IMG/VR virus record: IMGVR_UViG_3300001598_000033
Span: 90,413-154,412 of that record
Length of the DNA: 64,000 nt
Source: a virus
Lineage: Duplodnaviria; Caudoviricetes
Reading direction: 5' to 3' (one strand)
How positions within the stretch are numbered: the stretch's first letter is position 1; each line of letters starts with the position of its first letter. This document shows, piece after piece, positions 44,460 through 59,971 of this stretch. The notes below the pieces were generated by a model. The model was not told the DNA's origin. It ran no database searches and saw only the letters and a list, made by a program, of their open reading frames with translations. The position numbers and the translations under genes are program-made.

Positions 44460-45677
44460 ATGAATTTTAAGAATTTCAAAGATTATGTTTTTCAGAATCT
44501 AAGTGAGGCTGTCGTTAACAAGCATAGTACACACATCGAAGAAAATTTCTTGGTGAATGGTAAACAAGGCCTTTTAGATGCGGTTGAGGGATTACAGTAT
44601 ATTATTGATACAATCGGCACAGGTAAACCTGATGTAAGTACTAAGATTGATGGAGCTCCTGCAGTTATATTTGGTTGGAGTAAAGATGGGTTCTTTGTAT
44701 CTACTAAGGCTATCTTTAACAAAACACCTAAAATTAATTACAGCAATGATGATATCAACAATAATCACGAAGGTGGGTTAGCTGATACCCTAAAAGTTGC
44801 TTTAGAATACCTAAGAGATATCACACCAAAGGATGGTTCTGTGTACCAAGGTGATATACTATTTACAAAATCTAGTTTAAAATCAATTAGTGTAGACGGT
44901 AAAGCTTGCTATGCATGGCATCCAAACACAATTGTATACACTGTGGAAAAAGATTCAGATTTAGGTAAGGCTGTAGGGAATGCAGAATTTGGTATTGCAG
45001 TACATACAAGATATACTTGGCAAGACTCAGACCCTACAACATTATCAGTTGGTGGTTTTGGAGTAAACAAGAGTGTATTTAAGGATTCTAAAGATGTGTT
45101 TATGATTGACACTGTATCCAACCTTACAAACAGCAAAGCTTGTTTCGATCCAAAAGAAGCAAAGGAACTAGAAAAGATCCTTTCAAGTATCAAGGCATAT
45201 GGTAATAAGATCAAGTGGAATGAAATTAACGATGAACGTGCTTCGCATTTAATGACATTCTTCAACACTTACATTAGAGCAGGATCTCCAATGCCAAATC
45301 CTAAGAAACGTGAAGATGAATGGGTTGCATACATTACAACTAAAGCCAATAATGAAATTGAAAAGAAGAAAACAGAAAAGGGTAAGGAAACAGCAAGACA
45401 GAAGTTCGCTGATGTGTTGAATTTTAAAGGCTTAACTGCTATATTCGAAGTATTCGATTTAATTACTAAAGCTAAGTTAATGATCCTTAACCAATTAAAT
45501 AAAATGAAGATGTACAACAACTTTGTACTTACAACTAACGGTGATTATATTCCAACTAAGGATGAAGGTTTTGTATGCGTACAAACTGGTTCTAAAGGTT
45601 GTAAGTTGGTTGACCGTTATGAATTTTCTAGAAATAATTTCTCTAAAGATATAGTTGCAGGTTTTGATAAAGGCTAA
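44460..45677 (+). CDS. DUF6267-like protein with ligase-like motifs; probable internal virion protein
   Basis: HSTHIEE, TKIDGAPAV, YQGD, PNTIVY, EGFV, KLVDR.EFS; leader MNFKNFKDY...LSE-A; late promoter at 44420. Confidence 0.65.
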   Translation: MNFKNFKDYVFQNLSEAVVNKHSTHIEENFLVNGKQGLLDAVEGLQYIIDTIGTGKPDVSTKIDGAPAVIFGWSKDGFFVSTKAIFNKTPKINYSNDDINNNHEGGLADTLKVALEYLRDITPKDGSVYQGDILFTKSSLKSISVDGKACYAWHPNTIVYTVEKDSDLGKAVGNAEFGIAVHTRYTWQDSDPTTLSVGGFGVNKSVFKDSKDVFMIDTVSNLTNSKACFDPKEAKELEKILSSIKAYGNKIKWNEINDERASHLMTFFNTYIRAGSPMPNPKKREDEWVAYITTKANNEIEKKKTEKGKETARQKFADVLNFKGLTAIFEVFDLITKAKLMILNQLNKMKMYNNFVLTTNGDYIPTKDEGFVCVQTGSKGCKLVDRYEFSRNNFSKDIVAGFDKG

Positions 45678-45727: not shown

Positions 45728-45758
45728 AAATCCTATCGAAAGATAGGATTTTTTTTTT
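45728..45758 (+). terminator. Intrinsic terminator
   Basis: Identical hairpin to 19051. Confidence 0.9.
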
Positions 45759-45810: not shown

Positions 45811-45911
45811 TTAAAAAAAAAATTTGAAAAAAGTGTTGACTTTTATTTTAAAGTATGCTATAATATATACATAAAGATAAGGAATTAAAGAGAAATTTAA
45901 GAGGTAACGAT
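45811..45911 (+). promoter_or_regulatory. Early sigma70 promoter cassette
   Basis: TTGACT(45836)-17 nt-TATAAT(45859), extended -10. Confidence 0.9.
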
Positions 45912-46574
45912 ATGCAAAGTATTAAAGAAATAATAGCAATCTTGGAAAGCATTTTCGATAAGGCTAACGAAAAGTTCTACGACGGTAAGGTTATTAAACC
46001 AGTAATCACAGTACAAACAGCACGTAGAGGTGTGTTAGGATGGTGTTCTTGCAATCGTATCTGGAATAACGAAGAAACTAATGAAAAAGCTTATGAAATC
46101 AACATTGTTGCAGAACAACTAACACGTTCAATCAATGAAGTAGTTGGCACAATGTTACATGAAATGGTACATCTTTACAATCTCCAAAATGGCATCAAAG
46201 ATTGTACCGCTCAACAGTATCATAACAAACATTTTAAGAACTGTGCATTAGAACATGGATTGAAGTTAATATTCAATAGAGCAGATGTAAACAGAGGTTA
46301 CTCTTACACAGAATTAAATGATGAAGGATTAGCATTCGTTAAGGAAATGGGTCTAGAAGACTTCAAAATCAACAGAGGTATTAAGAAGGAAGGGGACTCA
46401 GAAACTCCAAAAGTGCCTAAGGCACCAAGACTTCCAGTTAATACAAAAACATACACATTCGAATGCGATTGCGGTATCAAAATCAAGCACAAGGATAAAG
46501 AATTAAATGTTACTTGTGGTTTATGTAAGACAAGATTTATGCTAAAGACCAAGTCTGGCAAGGTAGGTAAATAA
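45912..46574 (+). CDS. SprT-like zinc metalloprotease with C-terminal Zn ribbon
   Basis: TMLHEMVH, YHNKHF, CDCG...CGLC. Confidence 0.85.
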   Translation: MQSIKEIIAILESIFDKANEKFYDGKVIKPVITVQTARRGVLGWCSCNRIWNNEETNEKAYEINIVAEQLTRSINEVVGTMLHEMVHLYNLQNGIKDCTAQQYHNKHFKNCALEHGLKLIFNRADVNRGYSYTELNDEGLAFVKEMGLEDFKINRGIKKEGDSETPKVPKAPRLPVNTKTYTFECDCGIKIKHKDKELNVTCGLCKTRFMLKTKSGKVGK

Positions 46575-48184
46575 TGAAATTTGAAGCTATATGGCAAGAC
46601 AGAAGCCAATGGAAATACTTAGCGAGGTTAAATGATGGGGAGACTACTAAGGTGGTCGAAGTCCCTTCACAGTTTGAGTACTATGTACAACATAGCAAAG
46701 GTACTTACAAATATGTTTTAGACCAAAGTATTTCACTTCTTAAACGACTAGGCACATCTAAAGATGCTAAGGATCAGTTTGGTGTTGTCAACCCTATGTA
46801 CCGATATATTAGGGATAATTACTGGGGTAAGGGATATAACTTATCACCTAGGGTATGGTATCTTGATATTGAAACTAGAGCTGATGGTGCATTCCCAAAA
46901 CCAGAGTTAGCAGAAAAGCAAATTACATTAATCCAGATATTTGATAATAAGTTAGAGACAATGATTATATTTGGGTTGCGTGATTTTGAGATGGAGAAGG
47001 GATATGAATTACCTTATAAAGTAAAGTATATTAAATGTACTGATGAATTTGAACTTTTAAATAAATACCTTACAGTATTTAAAAAGTTAGACCCTTTAAT
47101 TATCCATGCATGGAATGGATTAGGTTTTGACTATCCATATATTCATAATAGATTAAAGAATTTGGGTATAGATCCGAATTTAATGTCTAACTATGGTAAG
47201 GTGGAGTATTCTGCAAACACAGATAATAAAACTCAAAAATTAATGTTTGATTTCACAGCACATGGCCATTACTATATTGATATGTTAGATGCATATAAGA
47301 ATTTCACATTTGATGTTAAATCGTCTTATGCATTGGATTTTATATCTAATATAGAGTTAGGTGAAGGTAAGGTAGACCATAGTGAGTTTACAACATTTGA
47401 TTCATTTTATACTGGTGAGTCATACCAAATATCTAATACATCTTATGATGATAAAGTGCGTGAGGAAATCCGTCAATTAAAAATAAAAGAACGTAATAAC
47501 GAAAATTATGATAACGATAGATTGTTAAAATTACTGCAATTTCAATTCGTATATTATGGTATTAAGGATGTGTACTTACTTAAACGATTGGATATGAAAA
47601 TGAATCTTACTAATATTATGTTAGGTATGGCTCAAAAAATGGGGTGTTTGGTAAGTGATACTATGGGTACCATTAAACCTTGGAGTACATATATTAACAA
47701 TGTATGTAATAGTAAGAACCTAGTATTTCCTCCTAGACAAGAGCATGAAAAATCTGATTTAAAAGGCGGGTTTGTGAGAAAACCTGTGAAGGGTAGACAT
47801 AAATGGGTTTTATCATTTGACTACAACTCGATGTACCCCATGAACATGGTTGGATTTAATATGAGTCCAGAAACTTATGTACCATTAGCAAAATGCCCTA
47901 GTGATTTAAGAGATTTAGTAATGAAATACTTTAATTCTCAAGATGAGGATAAAGCGCTAGATGTAAGTCAAGATGTGTGGGATAAAGTGACACCTTTACT
48001 ACAAAAGTATAATTATTCAATGGGTATAAATGGAGCATTATTTGATAAGTCTAAAGAAGGTATAATTCCTAATTTAGTATGGGATATATACACTCAAAGA
48101 AAGAAGGACAAGAAGATAATGTTAAAATATGAAAAACAAAAAGAGGTTATTCAAAAAATTATTTTAGCTAGAAAAAAATCTTAA
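46574..48184 (+). CDS. gp43: DNA polymerase B, N-terminal chain (gp43A: exonuclease, palm A, first finger helix)
   Basis: YLDIET (ExoI), WNGLGFDYPY (ExoII), YGIKDV (ExoIII), SFDYNSMYP (motif A), QRKKDK. Confidence 0.95.
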   Translation: MKFEAIWQDRSQWKYLARLNDGETTKVVEVPSQFEYYVQHSKGTYKYVLDQSISLLKRLGTSKDAKDQFGVVNPMYRYIRDNYWGKGYNLSPRVWYLDIETRADGAFPKPELAEKQITLIQIFDNKLETMIIFGLRDFEMEKGYELPYKVKYIKCTDEFELLNKYLTVFKKLDPLIIHAWNGLGFDYPYIHNRLKNLGIDPNLMSNYGKVEYSANTDNKTQKLMFDFTAHGHYYIDMLDAYKNFTFDVKSSYALDFISNIELGEGKVDHSEFTTFDSFYTGESYQISNTSYDDKVREEIRQLKIKERNNENYDNDRLLKLLQFQFVYYGIKDVYLLKRLDMKMNLTNIMLGMAQKMGCLVSDTMGTIKPWSTYINNVCNSKNLVFPPRQEHEKSDLKGGFVRKPVKGRHKWVLSFDYNSMYPMNMVGFNMSPETYVPLAKCPSDLRDLVMKYFNSQDEDKALDVSQDVWDKVTPLLQKYNYSMGINGALFDKSKEGIIPNLVWDIYTQRKKDKKIMLKYEKQKEVIQKIILARKKS

Positions 48185-48225
48185 GTTATTATATAATAAT
48201 AGAATAATAAAAGGAAATAATTTTT

Positions 48226-48903
48226 ATGATTGATTTAGAACCTGAAAAAATACTTGAACTTAGCGAGGAAGAGCTAAGTAAATATAGTATTGAAGATTTG
48301 GAGCATTTTTACGATATATGTCAGTATAATGAGGAATTTTACCATACACAACAATTAGTTGAAAAAATTATGATTAACTCATTATATGGTGCAGTAGGCA
48401 AGGAATTTTTCCCATTATTCAACCTCGATATGGCTAGAGCTATTACAGGTAATGGCCGTTACCTTGTTAAGAATACAGCTAATATGATTGAGGAAAAATT
48501 ACAGGAATTATTACCAACTGATTCTAAGTATGTGGTCTACGGTGATACTGACTCTGTGGTTTCCGATACCATCATAAATACCAGCAAGGGAAATATAACC
48601 ATAGGTGACTTGTACAATAATACTGATGGTAATATTGTTATAACTAAATCCAATAGCTATATAAAAACACCTAGCGAATATATTGAATCTTTAAGCTTAA
48701 ATAAAGACCTTAAAATTGAAAGTAAAAAGATAAAATATATTATGAAACACAAGGTTAATAAAAGAATGTTTAAAGTAAAATGTAATGGTAAAGAAGTTAC
48801 GATTACGGAAGATCATTCTATTATGGTTGTGAGAAATGGTATTTTAACTGAATGTAAACCAGCAGATATAATTAAAGGAGATAAGTTGATAATAAATGCC
48901 TAA
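48226..48903 (+). CDS. gp43: DNA polymerase middle fragment fused to a split-intein N-half (IntN 48553..48900, 116 aa)
   Basis: KIMINSLYGA (motif B), YGDTD then SVVSDT (block A) and ITEDHSIMV (block B). Confidence 0.92.
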   Translation: MIDLEPEKILELSEEELSKYSIEDLEHFYDICQYNEEFYHTQQLVEKIMINSLYGAVGKEFFPLFNLDMARAITGNGRYLVKNTANMIEEKLQELLPTDSKYVVYGDTDSVVSDTIINTSKGNITIGDLYNNTDGNIVITKSNSYIKTPSEYIESLSLNKDLKIESKKIKYIMKHKVNKRMFKVKCNGKEVTITEDHSIMVVRNGILTECKPADIIKGDKLIINA

Positions 48904-49774
48904 GAAGAATACTGTTTCTGGTAAATTTGCTAAAGATATAAAAGGATTTGAGAACCAGTTTATATTTTTAAAGAATTTATTTATTAAAAACAACTGGTCT
49001 TTGAGCTCTGTGCATAATACCATGAAACGATTCGTTGAAGGGTGGAATTACGACAATATTAAACCTGATGATATAGATCTAAACGCGTTCAGCGATAATA
49101 TAATGTTTATTAGGCAAAATAGATTTAATCGACAGAGTAAAAGTTATTTTATAGCCCAATATGGGGTGAATTTAGGTGAAATAAAATTCAGGAATCTTCA
49201 GAAAATACAATCATATACAAATTCTAAAGAATATAAAGGTATGGCTGATGACGAGTTTGCTGATTATAATAAATCCAGAGCCGTTACTTTAGATAATATG
49301 ATTATAAAATACGGTGAGGAAATCGGAACTAAAAAATTTAATGACTTTGTACAAAAGCATAATAAATTCTATTCGAAAATAGCTTCTGATTTCTTTACCA
49401 AATTAGATGAAGGAATTAAGGATTTTAAATTAACCACTAAATATGAACCAAAGACCTGTGAATTTTGGTTGGTTAATAACAATAAACTTTACTATTATGA
49501 TTTCTTAATAGAAGAATTAAATTATATAATTGAATTTAATGGTGATAGTTTTCACGCTAATCCTAAGTTGTTCAAGGAAGACGATCACCCAAATCCATAT
49601 GTTAAAAACTTAACAGCCAAAGAAATTTGGCTAAACGACCAGAAAAAGAATTCGATAGCTAAAGATGTTGGCTATGATATTGATGTTATCTGGGAATCCG
49701 ATTATAATAAAGATAAAAATTATTATATTAACTACTATATTAACAAGGTTAAAGAAAAATTAGGAAGGGTATGA
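48896..49774 (+). mobile_element. Free-standing Vsr-like homing endonuclease between the intein halves
   Basis: YG..LG..KF repeats, YSKIA..FF, YYYDF, IIEFNGDSFH, VIWESD; overlaps both flanking ORFs. Confidence 0.8.
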
Positions 49775-50700
49775 TGGAATTAGTGAACGAATTTGAAATT
49801 GAAGATTTAGGTATTCAAGAATTAGATGTTTATGATATAGAAGTGGAAGATAATCATAATTTCTTTGGAAATGATATATTAGTTCACAATTCCGGGTACT
49901 ATACGATTGCGCCATTTATGGATAAGGTAATTAAGGCTTATCCTAATTTATCAATGAATGATTATGTTGATAAAGCTGATGATTTTGAGAAGAAGGTTGT
50001 AGCCCCAATAATTGATAAATCGGTAGAAATAGCTTGTGGTAAATTAAATGCTTTGAGACCTGAGGTAATTGGAGCTAAACGTGAAATTATATCAGACTCG
50101 GTTATATTTGTTGAAAAGAAAAAGTATATAGCCCGTATCAGAGATTCCGAAGGTACAAGGTACCCTGAAGAAAAACCACATATGAAATTTATGGGAGTTG
50201 AATTAGCAAGGTCTCAAACAGCACCATTTACAAAGAGAAAGCTATTAGAATCCTTAGATATATTATTGGATAAGGATGAAAATGCATTAAGGGATTGGAT
50301 GGAAGAACAAAGAACCGAATATTATAACTCCGACATAGAGGATATAGCAACATATGGTTCAATAAGTGATATAAATTATAAACTGTCCGATAAGGGAATA
50401 CCTTATATGTGTAAAGGTGCAATATATCATAATAAATATATAACAGAACATAACTTACAAGGTAAATATAATCTATTTACTAGTGGTAGTAAAGGTCGTT
50501 GCATAATGATTAAACAACCAAACACGTTCGGACCTACCGATAGATTGATATACAACGATACTTCATTCGCCGAAATGTTTTTAGATTATATTGATTATGG
50601 TGAATCATTTGAAAAATTCTTTATACAACCGCTTCAAAACATGGCTAAAGCAATGGGGTATGAAATGGCGAAGAAGGTGGCAACTTATGACGAATGGTAA
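49771..50700 (+). CDS. gp43: Split-intein C-half (49771..49890, 40 aa) fused to the DNA polymerase C-terminal fragment
   Basis: VYDIEVEDNHNFFGNDILVHN/S (blocks F/G), then KREII, KKKY, KFMGVE..RS. Confidence 0.92.
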   Translation: MMELVNEFEIEDLGIQELDVYDIEVEDNHNFFGNDILVHNSGYYTIAPFMDKVIKAYPNLSMNDYVDKADDFEKKVVAPIIDKSVEIACGKLNALRPEVIGAKREIISDSVIFVEKKKYIARIRDSEGTRYPEEKPHMKFMGVELARSQTAPFTKRKLLESLDILLDKDENALRDWMEEQRTEYYNSDIEDIATYGSISDINYKLSDKGIPYMCKGAIYHNKYITEHNLQGKYNLFTSGSKGRCIMIKQPNTFGPTDRLIYNDTSFAEMFLDYIDYGESFEKFFIQPLQNMAKAMGYEMAKKVATYDEW

Positions 50701-56694: not shown

Positions 56695-57795
56695 ATGGAA
56701 AATTCTAAGTTAAAAGAAATTTTCACTATCGATACAATAACCCATTATAAAAATAATAAAGGGTTAATCACAAGTGAATTATTAGAAATATTAAGATCCC
56801 ATGGAAATGAAGGTAAACAAATAGCTTGGGATATACTTGATACAGAAAAATCTGAAGATAATTACTACTTAGATGCATATGGTGAAAAGATTTCATATGA
56901 AGGCGATAGAAACCTTAAAAAAGCATATACGGATATGAAGTTATCGTCTATTCATATTGAGGAATTAAGGAAATGCAAAGAAGATCTGTATTACTTCAAA
57001 GATAACTACGTAAAAATTAGAACAAAAGAAGGTGTTAATTTCCCTGAAACCCGTTCATATCAAATCGAATTTTTAAACAGCATCATGAGTGAAGAATCTG
57101 AAGGTACAGTATCATTACAAGGTCGACAATCAGGTAAGTCAGTAACAACCGCTATATATCTAGTATGGAAGTTTTTATTCACCGAAAATATTAACATCGG
57201 TATATGTGCCAATAAAGGTTCATTAGCAAGGGAATTTCTTAATAATGTTAAGATGATATTTGGCTTTTTACCAATGTGGATGAAAGTTGGTATTGTAGAA
57301 TGGAATAAAGGCTCAGTTGCCTCAGAATCGAATACCCGCATATTAACAGATGTTCCTAGTGAGAACTCATTTCGTGGTTTTAGTATTCATATATTAGTTA
57401 TAGATGAAGTTGCATTTATTCGAAATACAATATGGCGGGAATTTGCAGATTCTATATTCCCTTCTCAATCATCATTAACTTGGAAGAAAAATATTCTCAT
57501 AAGTACTCCTAACGGATTGAACCATTGGAAAACAATTTGTGATAAAGCTAAATCTGGTGAATCTGGTTATTCGTTCCATTTCGTAGATTGGAGAGACGTT
57601 CCAAGATTTGATAATAAAGGTAGACAATTAACTGCAGAAGAATTTAAAAACAAAATAATCAGGGAGAATGGTATAACCTTTTTCAACCAAAACTATGCAT
57701 GCATAGATGGAGATTCCGTAATAAATATTTATGATAAATTAAATGAATCATTTTCACAGGTTAAGGTAAAAGATTTATATGAAAAACTCACGTAA
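56695..57795 (+). CDS. gp17: Terminase large subunit, ATPase half, fused to a 31-aa atypical split-intein N-half (57700..57792)
   Basis: YFKDNY, RQSGKS (Walker A), LVIDEVAF (Walker B), STPNG; then CIDGDSVINI...KVKDLYEKLT stop. Confidence 0.93.
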   Translation: MENSKLKEIFTIDTITHYKNNKGLITSELLEILRSHGNEGKQIAWDILDTEKSEDNYYLDAYGEKISYEGDRNLKKAYTDMKLSSIHIEELRKCKEDLYYFKDNYVKIRTKEGVNFPETRSYQIEFLNSIMSEESEGTVSLQGRQSGKSVTTAIYLVWKFLFTENINIGICANKGSLAREFLNNVKMIFGFLPMWMKVGIVEWNKGSVASESNTRILTDVPSENSFRGFSIHILVIDEVAFIRNTIWREFADSIFPSQSSLTWKKNILISTPNGLNHWKTICDKAKSGESGYSFHFVDWRDVPRFDNKGRQLTAEEFKNKIIRENGITFFNQNYACIDGDSVINIYDKLNESFSQVKVKDLYEKLT

Positions 57796-59971
57796 GCAAA
57801 AATATATACATACAAGTCTGTTACATTATGGTGTTGATCACCCTATGCAAACAGATGAAATAAAAGAGAAAAGAAATAAAACATGCTTAGAAAAATACGG
57901 TTGTGAATCTTTTTCATCATCAGCTGATGGCCGTGCAATAATTTCTAAATCTCGAAAACTAGAGCAGGAATATGATGGTGATTTTTATGATTTTCAAACA
58001 ACTAAAAATTTTTGTTTAAATATTGATAACAAATATTTAAAATCTGGTGGATATAGGACATTAATCAAAGAAGATAAAAAAATGTATTTTTCTATATTAC
58101 ATCATGCAACTGAAGTTAGTAAGTGTAAAAATGTAACTTTTAGATCATATGTCTGTTTTCTACAAGGTAAAGTAAATGAGTATAAATGCCCAATATGTGG
58201 TGCTTACTATAAGTGGGATATTGCTGAGTTTGTATTTAAGATGCCTTCTACGGATATTCATTATAAGTATGATAGAACACTGGAGTATTATACGAAGATA
58301 TATGGTCGAGAATTAGGCCTTGAAAAATTTAATAATTATAATGAAAAAAGAAAAATAGGTACAGAAAAAAGTAAAAAACAAAAAGTTAATTCCAAGGAAT
58401 ATTATATCAAAAAATATGGCAAAGAACTTGGAGAGAAATTATTTATTGAAAAAACTAATAATAGGTTAAATAAATCAAAAAAGTCATATTCTAAGATATC
58501 TCAGAAATTTTTTAATGAGTTAGTGACAATTTGTGATTTGGATAAAACGAAATGCTATTATGCTACTAATAATTATGAAAAAACTTTTAAATTAACTGAA
58601 GAGTATAAAAATAAATTGCATCAAGATGTAATTAGAACTGATTTCATGATATCTAATAAAGTTATAGAATTTAACGGCACATACTGGCATAAAAACAGTA
58701 TTGAGAAAGATATATACAGAAAACAGTTTTTAGAGTCGCTTGGTATTGATGTATTAATTATATGGGACGATGAGGATTGGGATACAGCTTTACATAGGGC
58801 AAAAGAATTTTTAAATAATAATAGATATCAAATAGAAACATCAGACAAGTATTCTGATTTTATTGGAATTAGAAAAAAAGAAGTTTCAGAAGTTTTAAAG
58901 ATAACATTTGAAAATGGTGATATAACCGTCTCAAAAGATCACAGATTTGTTGTATATGATAAAGAAATTTTTGCACATTCGTTAAAAATTGGGGATGTAA
59001 TAATAACAAAGGATTTATTACCGACTAGAATTATTAATATAGAAACAATCAAAGAAAAAACAGACGTATATGATATCATTAACACTGATAATCATACTTA
59101 TATAGCTAATAATATAGTGAACCACAATTGTGAATTCATTGGTTCATCTACAACATTGGTTAATCCTGATGTATTATCTACATTAACAGCTAAACAACCG
59201 GAGCTGATATGGGATTCTAAATTAAAAATATACCAGGAACCTATACCTAAACATAAGTATATTTTGGATGTAGACCCTTCTAAGTGTTATGGTGATGCTT
59301 TCGCTGTGCATGTTGTTGATATTACTACTAAGCCTTTTATTCAAGTTGCTTCAGCACAGCTATTTGATGAAAATTTCCAGCTAATGCCATCTTTCTTGGA
59401 TGAATGGGGTAGAAGATATAACAATGCATTTATGATTATTGAAAATAATGAAGGTGCAGGTACCTTTGTTGCTATAATGTTGAAGAATGACTATGAATAT
59501 CCTAATTTATTTTATGATAAAACGTATAACAGAATGGCCCCATTAGGTAAGGTTAATAAAGAGCCAGGTTTTAGAACCACATCTAAATCAAGAAATTTAA
59601 TACTAGATACAATGAAGTTGTTTTTAGATAATAACTTACTGGTGATAAATGATAAAGCTACAATTGAGGAATTTTACACATTTATAGCCATAAACGGTAA
59701 GTATCAAGCTGATAATGGGTATCATGATGATATGATTATGTCATTAGCTTTAACATTCGCTCCTTTTTGTAATTCAAGAAACTTTGAGGATATGACTGCA
59801 ATTATAAGTACATTATACAATAAAGATGCAGATGAAGATGTGTTAATCGGTGATTATTTAACTATAGGTAATTTTGATGATTATTCAGATGAAAATGAAT
59901 ATAAAGAAGATAAGAAATGGGATTGGAATAGCTTAGGATGGAACTCTTATAATTTTGGATTTAAAAAGTAG
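57779..59971 (+). CDS. gp17: Fusion: Vsr-like endonuclease (~aa 1-345) + intein C-half (~58820..59128) + terminase nuclease domain (from Cys at 59129)
   Basis: CLEKYG, CPICG, YG.ELG..KF repeats, VIEFNGTYWH; VSKDHRF (block B), VYDII...NIVNHN/CEF; DVDPS, IENNEG, HDDMIMSL. Confidence 0.9.
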   Translation: MKNSRKQKYIHTSLLHYGVDHPMQTDEIKEKRNKTCLEKYGCESFSSSADGRAIISKSRKLEQEYDGDFYDFQTTKNFCLNIDNKYLKSGGYRTLIKEDKKMYFSILHHATEVSKCKNVTFRSYVCFLQGKVNEYKCPICGAYYKWDIAEFVFKMPSTDIHYKYDRTLEYYTKIYGRELGLEKFNNYNEKRKIGTEKSKKQKVNSKEYYIKKYGKELGEKLFIEKTNNRLNKSKKSYSKISQKFFNELVTICDLDKTKCYYATNNYEKTFKLTEEYKNKLHQDVIRTDFMISNKVIEFNGTYWHKNSIEKDIYRKQFLESLGIDVLIIWDDEDWDTALHRAKEFLNNNRYQIETSDKYSDFIGIRKKEVSEVLKITFENGDITVSKDHRFVVYDKEIFAHSLKIGDVIITKDLLPTRIINIETIKEKTDVYDIINTDNHTYIANNIVNHNCEFIGSSTTLVNPDVLSTLTAKQPELIWDSKLKIYQEPIPKHKYILDVDPSKCYGDAFAVHVVDITTKPFIQVASAQLFDENFQLMPSFLDEWGRRYNNAFMIIENNEGAGTFVAIMLKNDYEYPNLFYDKTYNRMAPLGKVNKEPGFRTTSKSRNLILDTMKLFLDNNLLVINDKATIEEFYTFIAINGKYQADNGYHDDMIMSLALTFAPFCNSRNFEDMTAIISTLYNKDADEDVLIGDYLTIGNFDDYSDENEYKEDKKWDWNSLGWNSYNFGFKK

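Follow-up and report, generated by a model that had tools for sequence, protein, structure and literature searches.

How can a phage copy its genome with a DNA polymerase whose gene is broken at two places, each by a different kind of interruption? The question is raised by positions 46574-50700 of the window, a stretch of 64,000 nucleotides (nt) spanning positions 90,413 to 154,412 of the IMG/VR record IMGVR_UViG_3300001598_000033, which has 154,412 bp, is estimated to be 84% complete and comes from an uncultured T4-like phage. Four open reading frames (ORFs) of 536, 225, 292 and 309 amino acids (aa) follow one another there on the same strand and fill the interval. An earlier note on this DNA, made from the letters alone, had seen here a polymerase in three pieces produced by two splitting mechanisms; the ORFs were confirmed at these coordinates, and the sequence elements that each mechanism requires are all present. 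It is highly probable that the locus encodes gp43, the phage's replicative DNA polymerase of family B, broken into three cistrons by two independent interruptions: a fingers break of the type found in Aeromonas phage 44RR, and a "fractured gene" cassette at polymerase motif C, in which the N-terminal (IntN) and C-terminal (IntC) halves of a split intein flank a nuclease gene. The parts of the locus are as follows.

46574..48184, + strand: gp43A, 536 aa, the part of a family B polymerase of the T4/RB69 type that comprises the N-terminal domain, the 3'-5' exonuclease, motif A of the palm and the first helix of the fingers.
48185..48225, + strand: intercistronic spacer, 41 nt, A/T-rich, with the Shine-Dalgarno (SD) sequence AAAGGAA at 48210-48216; it shifts the frame from gp43A to gp43B1.
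48226..48552, + strand: gp43B1 extein, 109 aa, with the second fingers helix, motif B (KIMINSLYGA) and palm motif C as far as YGDTD.
48553..48903, + strand: IntN, 116 aa, with Ser1, block A SVVSDTII and block B TEDH, followed by a stop codon.
48896..49774, + strand: free-standing, predicted Vsr-like (EDxHD family) homing endonuclease gene, 292 aa, with N-terminal helical repeats and a C-terminal nuclease domain.
49771..49890, + strand: IntC, 40 aa, with block F VYDIEVEDNHNFF and block G ILVHN.
49891..50700, + strand: gp43B2 extein, 269 aa, with the Ser+1 that completes YGDTD-S, the remaining palm and the thumb.

The second ORF, here fragment 2, joins gp43B1 to IntN (48226-48903, 225 aa), and the last, fragment 3, joins IntC to gp43B2 (49771-50700, 309 aa). 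Most of what the earlier note had described was recovered: the gap with its own SD sequence after gp43A, motif B and YGDTD ahead of a Ser-type IntN on fragment 2, an endonuclease ORF between the intein halves, an IntC ending in HN/S that restores YGDTD-S, and stop/start overlaps among the final three ORFs.

That the three pieces belong to one polymerase is indicated by their domains and by their order. In gp43A, Pfam matched DNA_pol_B_exo1 (PF03104, 1.1e-17) and DNA_pol_B (PF00136, 3.1e-11) and PHROGs matched phrog_262 (7e-106), while DNA_pol_B was matched in each of fragments 2 and 3 and phrog_27191, a profile of 230 positions, covers fragment 2 from end to end. An alignment of the exteins to RB69 gp43 had been suggested in the earlier note, and a search of PDB sequences covered RB69 gp43 in order, with gp43A corresponding to residues 100-502, fragment 2 residues 14-117 to residues 527-633 and fragment 3 residues 47-307 to residues 630-899, so that collinearity is complete across the three pieces except for the fingers tip. 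The first break thus lies at the fingers tip, between the two long fingers helices (RB69 ~502-527), and the second directly after both catalytic aspartates of motif C. Of the motifs, gp43A carries Exo I (DIE), Exo II (N..FD), Exo III (Y...D) and also motif A (D....YP), each of them invariant among its aligned homologues, and fragment 2 carries motif B and YGDTD, its polymerase motifs being likewise invariant in the fragment 2 alignment. Motif C, YGDTDS, becomes whole only once gp43B1 is joined to gp43B2. Exo I to III, motifs A, B and C and the collinearity with RB69 together place the enzyme in the T4/RB69 gp43 type, and no second match to polB was found elsewhere in the 154,412-bp record, which represents about 84% of the genome.

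Since the record is a metagenomic assembly, and obviously fragmented polymerase ORFs occur in some of the relatives on deposit, for example in the CP21 record, the stop codons might be regarded as sequencing or assembly errors in a gene that is truly contiguous, or contiguous but for a cis-intein. However, the same lengths recur in nearly all listed members of three clusters built at 90% identity, whose members come from independent ENA, Logan and JGI assemblies: 13 of the 15 sequences clustering with gp43A have 536 aa and the other two are shorter; fragment 2 has 25 cluster members, with 225 aa in 14 of 15 listed; and fragment 3 has 22, with 308-313 aa in 14 of 15 listed. Lengths recurring in independent assemblies argue that the stops are not errors. 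Furthermore, every cistron comes with a separate SD site and start codon, two stops precede the ATG in the gp43B1 frame, the break positions coincide with those of cultured phages, and a complete 292-aa homing endonuclease gene stands between the intein halves, so that an artifact of sequencing or assembly has next to no chance of being the explanation. A second doubt is that the locus could be a decaying, non-functional polymerase, with another enzyme replicating the genome, as three interruptions in one gene, a deletion in the nuclease gene and the 84% completeness of the record might suggest. Against such decay, the exonuclease and polymerase motifs are all intact, no stop or frameshift occurs inside any piece, the record holds no other polB match, and near-identical copies persist in many samples, which together render a dead polymerase very improbable.

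The gp43A end falls within 1-4 residues of the gp43A ends in phages Aes123, PTm1, Va1 and pv27 in the alignment. The earlier note had placed the stop of gp43A in the fingers, which is correct, but directly after QRKKDK, which is not: the C-terminus reads IILARKKS, 23 residues further on, still within the fingers tip. The stop TAA occupies 48182-48184, and fragment 2 starts in a different frame with the ATG at 48226, 9 nt behind its SD sequence. A break at the fingers tip and a separate downstream cistron with its own ribosome-binding site are the marks of the 44RR-type split. As summarised in PMC2988022, a non-covalent 43A/43B split with a short intercistronic sequence was described in 44RR (Petrov, Ratnayaka & Karam 2010); according to the same summary, the split 43A and 43B products of phage 25 co-purify and are active as polymerase, and chain association and activity are reported for both phages 25 and 44RR. 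PMC2677866 is a further second-hand source on these two phages.

Could the ribosome nevertheless fuse gp43A and gp43B1 during translation, by a programmed frameshift or by bypassing the 41-nt spacer? A run of seven adenines (AAAAAAA) lies just ahead of the gp43A stop, gp43B1 is in the -1 frame, and gene 60 of T4 offers a precedent for bypassing. However, a ribosome that slipped into the -1 frame at the A-run would run into two stops, TAA TAA, five codons before the fragment 2 ATG; no matching pair of take-off and landing codons was found; and RNA folding of the gp43A/fragment 2 junction revealed no structure above shuffled controls (z +0.99), hence no stable hairpin. An SD site and an ATG are present, and whole genes occupy the spacer position in relatives. 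Fusion by frameshift or bypass was therefore rejected on the stops, the codon pairing and the hairpin, its probability being close to nil. Since the stops lie upstream of the gp43B1 ATG, with neither structure nor codon pairing for bypass, gp43A and gp43B1 are taken as separate chains, and gp43A and gp43B would most likely assemble non-covalently. In Va1, a MobE homing endonuclease gene (L016:6287-7015) lies between gp43A and gp43B where the window has its spacer, and in pv27 the same position holds a 65-aa ORF (L017:6108-6302). An origin of the spacer as the scar of a lost endonuclease gene fits both.

The second interruption lies within motif C. IntN comprises fragment 2 residues 110-225 and opens with Ser in block A, while IntC comprises fragment 3 residues 1-40 and ends in His-Asn ahead of Ser+1 (S41). 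The Pfam profile Intein_splicing is divided between them, its positions 6-93 matching in fragment 2 and its final 24 positions (132-155) in fragment 3. For both halves the best PDB match was 9hth, the crystal structure of the Aes123 PolB1 intein, which covers fragment 2 residues 107-222 (E 1.4e-20) and fragment 3 residues 4-43 (E 7.7e-13). All class 1 residues are there, namely Ser1, the TxxH of block B, the His-Asn of block G and Ser+1 at YGDTD|S, and S110, T194, D196 and H197 of fragment 2 as well as H39, N40 and S41 of fragment 3 are invariant in alignments of the Aeromonas, Tenacibaculum and Campylobacter phage homologues. Another invariant residue of fragment 2 is H175 (in IMKH), 22 residues ahead of the block B His; a histidine in the NX motif is typical of Ser1 inteins (PMC10189870). 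IntN carries two cysteines, both non-catalytic. The split lies at the canonical site, with 116 aa in IntN and 40 aa in IntC inside the published ranges of ~100-120 and ~35-50 aa (PMC13014065), and the insertion point in PolB motif C (DTD|S) is identical in Aes123, PTm1 and F379. The intein blocks of the window also match those published for Pseudomonas phage MIJ3 (PMC6892783). By these residues and matches, the intein can be assigned to the canonically split class 1 with Ser1 and Ser+1, of the Aes123 PolB1 type.

The Aes123 PolB1 intein is naturally split and cysteine-less, comes from T4-like Aeromonas salmonicida phages, and trans-splices ultra-fast with a dissociation constant of ~12 nM between the partners (PMC11923092; PMC13014065). 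IntN of the window is 43% and IntC 79% identical to it, and IntC is 73-88% identical to the IntC of F379, Aes123 and the related locus L008. After translation, IntN and IntC would be expected to associate and trans-splice the end of gp43B1 (...YGDTD) to the start of gp43B2 (SGYY...), giving a gp43B of ~378 aa. In pv27, whose gp43B is intein-less, the protein runs across the insertion point and is collinear with this predicted ligation product; the junction reads YGDTDS-YYYHIEPF in pv27 and Va1, compared with YGDTD plus SGYYTIAPF in the window. A different possibility is that the intein halves are dead for splicing and merely dock the gp43B pieces non-covalently into a three-chain enzyme, for which it may be said that the natural Aes123 IntN precursor splices only ~30% in vitro owing to aggregation (PMC11923092). 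Yet no splicing residue is missing, from Ser1 and the T..H of block B to the penultimate His, the terminal Asn and Ser+1; all of these are invariant among the homologues, and both halves resemble the active Aes123 intein at the identities just given, so splicing-dead docking is improbable. With trans-splicing as the preferred reading, homology suggests an active site that would require both the splicing of gp43B and the assembly of gp43A with gp43B.

The order of the pieces around the nuclease gene is that of the "fractured genes" (Dassa et al. 2009, PMC2677866), which consist of the N-part of a host gene with IntN, a free-standing GIY-YIG or Vsr-like homing endonuclease gene, and IntC with the host C-part, the 3' end of the nuclease gene overlapping the downstream gene (PMC2677866). 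In the window these parts are adjacent and on a single strand, and the nuclease 3' end overlaps the IntC ORF. The overlap between fragment 2 and the nuclease ORF has 8 nt (ATGCCTAA) and that between the nuclease ORF and fragment 3 has 4 nt (ATGA), each with an AGGAG-like site upstream. RNA folding of these two junctions showed no structure above shuffled sequences (z +0.28 and +1.41), and no hairpin masks the ribosome-binding site of the nuclease gene.

What does the ORF between the intein halves encode? It matched phrog_22677 (1.4e-43), a Pfam scan assigned it to no family, and its homologues, at 29-40% identity, include CP21_248 and the ORFs that carry a VSR endonuclease annotation in Aes123, Aes508 and PTm1. 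When PDB sequences were searched with a profile, E. coli Vsr came up only weakly (E 0.07-0.09) and I-Bth0305I was not recovered; since the sequence profile is weak, a comparison of folds was needed for the assignment. An AlphaFold (AF2) model built from seven homologues has a predicted local distance difference test (pLDDT) score >90 over ~residues 160-290, within a nuclease domain of ~residues 157-292. With this model, Foldseek ranked Vsr first (probability 1.00), and VIA-align gave Z 11.2 to the Vsr-DNA structure 1cw0_A (115 residues aligned, root-mean-square deviation (rmsd) 3.0) and Z 10.6 to the catalytic domain of I-Bth0305I, 3r3p_A (97/97 residues, rmsd 2.7). Both alignments span model residues 157-290, and their scores exceed generic restriction-fold matches. 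In the profile alignment, D202, N215, H220 and D248 correspond to D51, H64, H69 and D97 of Vsr, and E213, at the position of Vsr F62, is the extra acidic residue which, with the composite EDxHD catalytic motif, is known from the I-Bth0305I family (PMC3239194). E189 is the candidate first Glu (Vsr E25), assigned by position only. None of the three nuclease alignments varies at D202, E213, H220 or D248, and N215 is invariant in two of them. The modeled fold therefore indicates that the middle ORF has the Vsr/I-Bth0305I (EDxHD) fold at its C-terminus, with conserved candidate catalytic residues. The nuclease would most likely cut intein-less polB alleles during co-infection and thereby spread the cassette.

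The N-terminal part contains two KYGxxxGxxKF modules, putative DNA-binding repeats of a NUMOD-like kind, where the nearest relatives have three. Compared with P0047 and P0048 (344-347 aa), which are 91-93% identical elsewhere, one of the three repeats has been lost by a 52-aa in-frame deletion (window 49280-49310, ~residues 133/134) between two AVTLDNMI...KYGxxxGxxKF modules, and because of this deletion the ORF is a singleton at 90% identity. The deletion leaves the catalytic domain unaffected; either the homing endonuclease is at an early stage of decay, or the assembly has collapsed a repeat. Elsewhere in the window, a terminase-linked ORF (57779-59971) has an N-terminal region weakly similar to this nuclease (BLASTP 27% over 203 aa, E 0.006) and shares with it the motifs IIEFNG..H and IW. 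Going by this similarity, two split inteins of one genome may be served by nucleases of a single family.

How did one gene come to hold both interruptions? In a maximum-likelihood tree of the gp43A region, the window falls into one clade with Va1/pv27, F379 and L007 (support 100/100), while the Aeromonas phages and PTm1 lie outside. Within that clade the fingers split occurs alone in Va1 and pv27, the intein cassette alone in F379 and L007, and both in the window; with split-only and cassette-only relatives in one clade, each interruption assorts independently of the other. As Va1 and pv27 have the fingers split too, it looks inherited in the window's lineage. The intein and nuclease are closest to those of L008, L007 and F379, whose polymerases are only 32-40% identical to that of the window and have gp43A and gp43B1 fused, and from these identities the cassette looks horizontally acquired in the window's lineage. 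It is probable that gp43 came to be in three pieces on more than one occasion. We lean slightly toward a fuller account in which the three-piece polymerase of this lineage arose separately from those of the Aeromonas and Tenacibaculum phages, motif C and the fingers tip being hot spots invaded separately and repeatedly, the spacer the scar of a lost mobE-like gene, and the loss of a nuclease repeat a decay that started after fixation.

The four ORFs seem to be coupled in translation as a single unit, with its promoter near 45836-45864. This promoter-like site has an 11/12 match, and together with a terminator-like site at 45728-45751 it lies upstream of an ORF of the SprT-like metalloprotease family (45912-46574; PF10263, 9.8e-8), which ends on the first base of gp43A and is possibly translationally coupled to it. 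The scan for promoters and terminators showed no enrichment over shuffled sequence (38 promoter-like sites, 34.8 expected), and it detected no terminator-like site on the coding strand inside 46574-50700. Upstream of the SprT-like ORF lies a DUF6267 protein (44460-45677, 1.9e-82), and DUF6267 adjoins the polymerase in Va1 too.

Several points weigh against reading the locus as a three-piece replicative polymerase with two independent interruptions. Since the record is only ~84% complete, it may lack a second polymerase that the phage possesses. With the promoter scan unenriched, the operon structure is deduced from ORF packing only. Splicing, chain assembly and nuclease activity are predictions for this phage, and the nuclease, missing one of its three N-terminal repeat modules, may be impaired. 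The tree does not resolve the branching within the window's clade, so that the order of gains and losses is uncertain. With these points included, two interruptions of one gp43 gene stay highly probable.

Compared with known systems, the locus reveals no new mechanism, and its arrangement is known and partly characterised experimentally. The earlier note had implied that the co-occurrence of the two splits was novel, which does not hold, since the three-piece layout was annotated already in Aes123, Aes508 and PTm1. The GenBank entry of Aes123 (JN377899) lists gp43A, gp43B1 with a putative N-intein, a putative VSR endonuclease and gp43B2 with a putative C-intein; in that of Aes508 (JN377894), a group I intron and a homing endonuclease gene of the Seg-like GIY-YIG kind come in addition to the same layout; and Aes516, by its GenBank annotation, has both splits without the nuclease gene. 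PTm1 (AP019524) is annotated with a DNA polymerase, two ORFs, an intein-containing split DNA polymerase precursor, a VSR endonuclease and a DNA polymerase. The literature search found no paper that discusses the three-piece enzyme as such, the precedent consisting of GenBank annotations.

Aes123 and Aes508, T4-like phages of Aeromonas salmonicida, share with the window the order and strand of the four ORFs, the end position of gp43A, an intein at YxDTD|S with Ser1 and Ser+1, a homologous Vsr-like ORF between its halves and the start/stop overlaps. However, their polymerase parts are only 26-40% identical to those of the window and belong to a different clade on the gp43A tree, their nuclease has 353 aa whereas that of the window has 292, and Aes123 as annotated has no gp43A/gp43B1 spacer. 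PTm1, a Tenacibaculum phage, likewise has both splits, a Vsr-like ORF and gp43A ending at an equivalent position, but ~2 kb with two extra ORFs separate its gp43A from gp43B1, and it is a 225-kb jumbo phage with a very divergent polymerase (24-32% identity, long branch).

The layout agrees with the "fractured genes" (PMC2677866) and the nuclease fold and candidate catalytic residues with I-Bth0305I (PMC3239194), except that RNA folding found no hairpin upstream of the window's nuclease start and that I-Bth0305I is encoded by an intron in recA and is not associated with an intein (PMC3239194). For the Aeromonas phages 44RR and 25, in contrast to the window, the summary in PMC2988022 describes no intein.

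The motif C split intein with a nuclease gene between its halves is shared with the Campylobacter phages F379 and CP21 (Firehammervirus), L007 (IMG/VR) and MIJ3 (PMC6892783), in all of which gp43A and gp43B1 are fused, without the fingers split; the middle gene of MIJ3 is described as HNH (PMC6892783), unlike the Vsr-like ORF here. Identity to F379 and L007 is 52-53% in IntN and 73-77% in IntC. F379 (L002:4539-5385) has its nuclease gene, between IntN and IntC, divided into two ORFs (F379_017, F379_018), and in the CP21 record (L001:2336-6444) the polymerase region is annotated as ~nine small ORFs, probably through sequencing errors. Two further loci show other states of the gene. A 577-aa gp43B-like ORF (L012:3191-4924, IMGVR_UViG_3300033068_001993) is interrupted at this motif C site by a mini-intein in cis, in one contiguous piece; a tail sheath gene lies upstream and gp43A is not adjacent, so that this polymerase has the fingers split with unlinked halves and an unsplit intein. 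A 150-aa ORF (L013:4995-5447, IMGVR_UViG_3300003873_000007) has ~43 extein residues before IntN and a GTP cyclohydrolase I gene upstream, and the polymerase of that genome may be further fragmented or rearranged.

The nearest cultured relatives of the exteins are the ~195-kb Vibrio phages Va1 (MK387337) and pv27 (OR413349), with 48-60% identity across the exteins and 51-60% in the gp43B1 extein. They have the fingers split at exactly the same residue, but neither intein nor Vsr-like gene, and their gp43B is in one piece. The window thus adds another natural Ser1/Ser+1 split intein, a cysteine-independent class that is sought after for protein engineering, and a third phage lineage whose replicative polymerase, though essential, tolerates the combination of two unlike interruptions. 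Relatives that carry each interruption alone, Va1 and pv27 for the fingers split and F379 and L007 for the intein cassette, provide a natural comparison set for two questions: by what route homing endonucleases come to fracture essential genes, and what keeps the fractured genes working.

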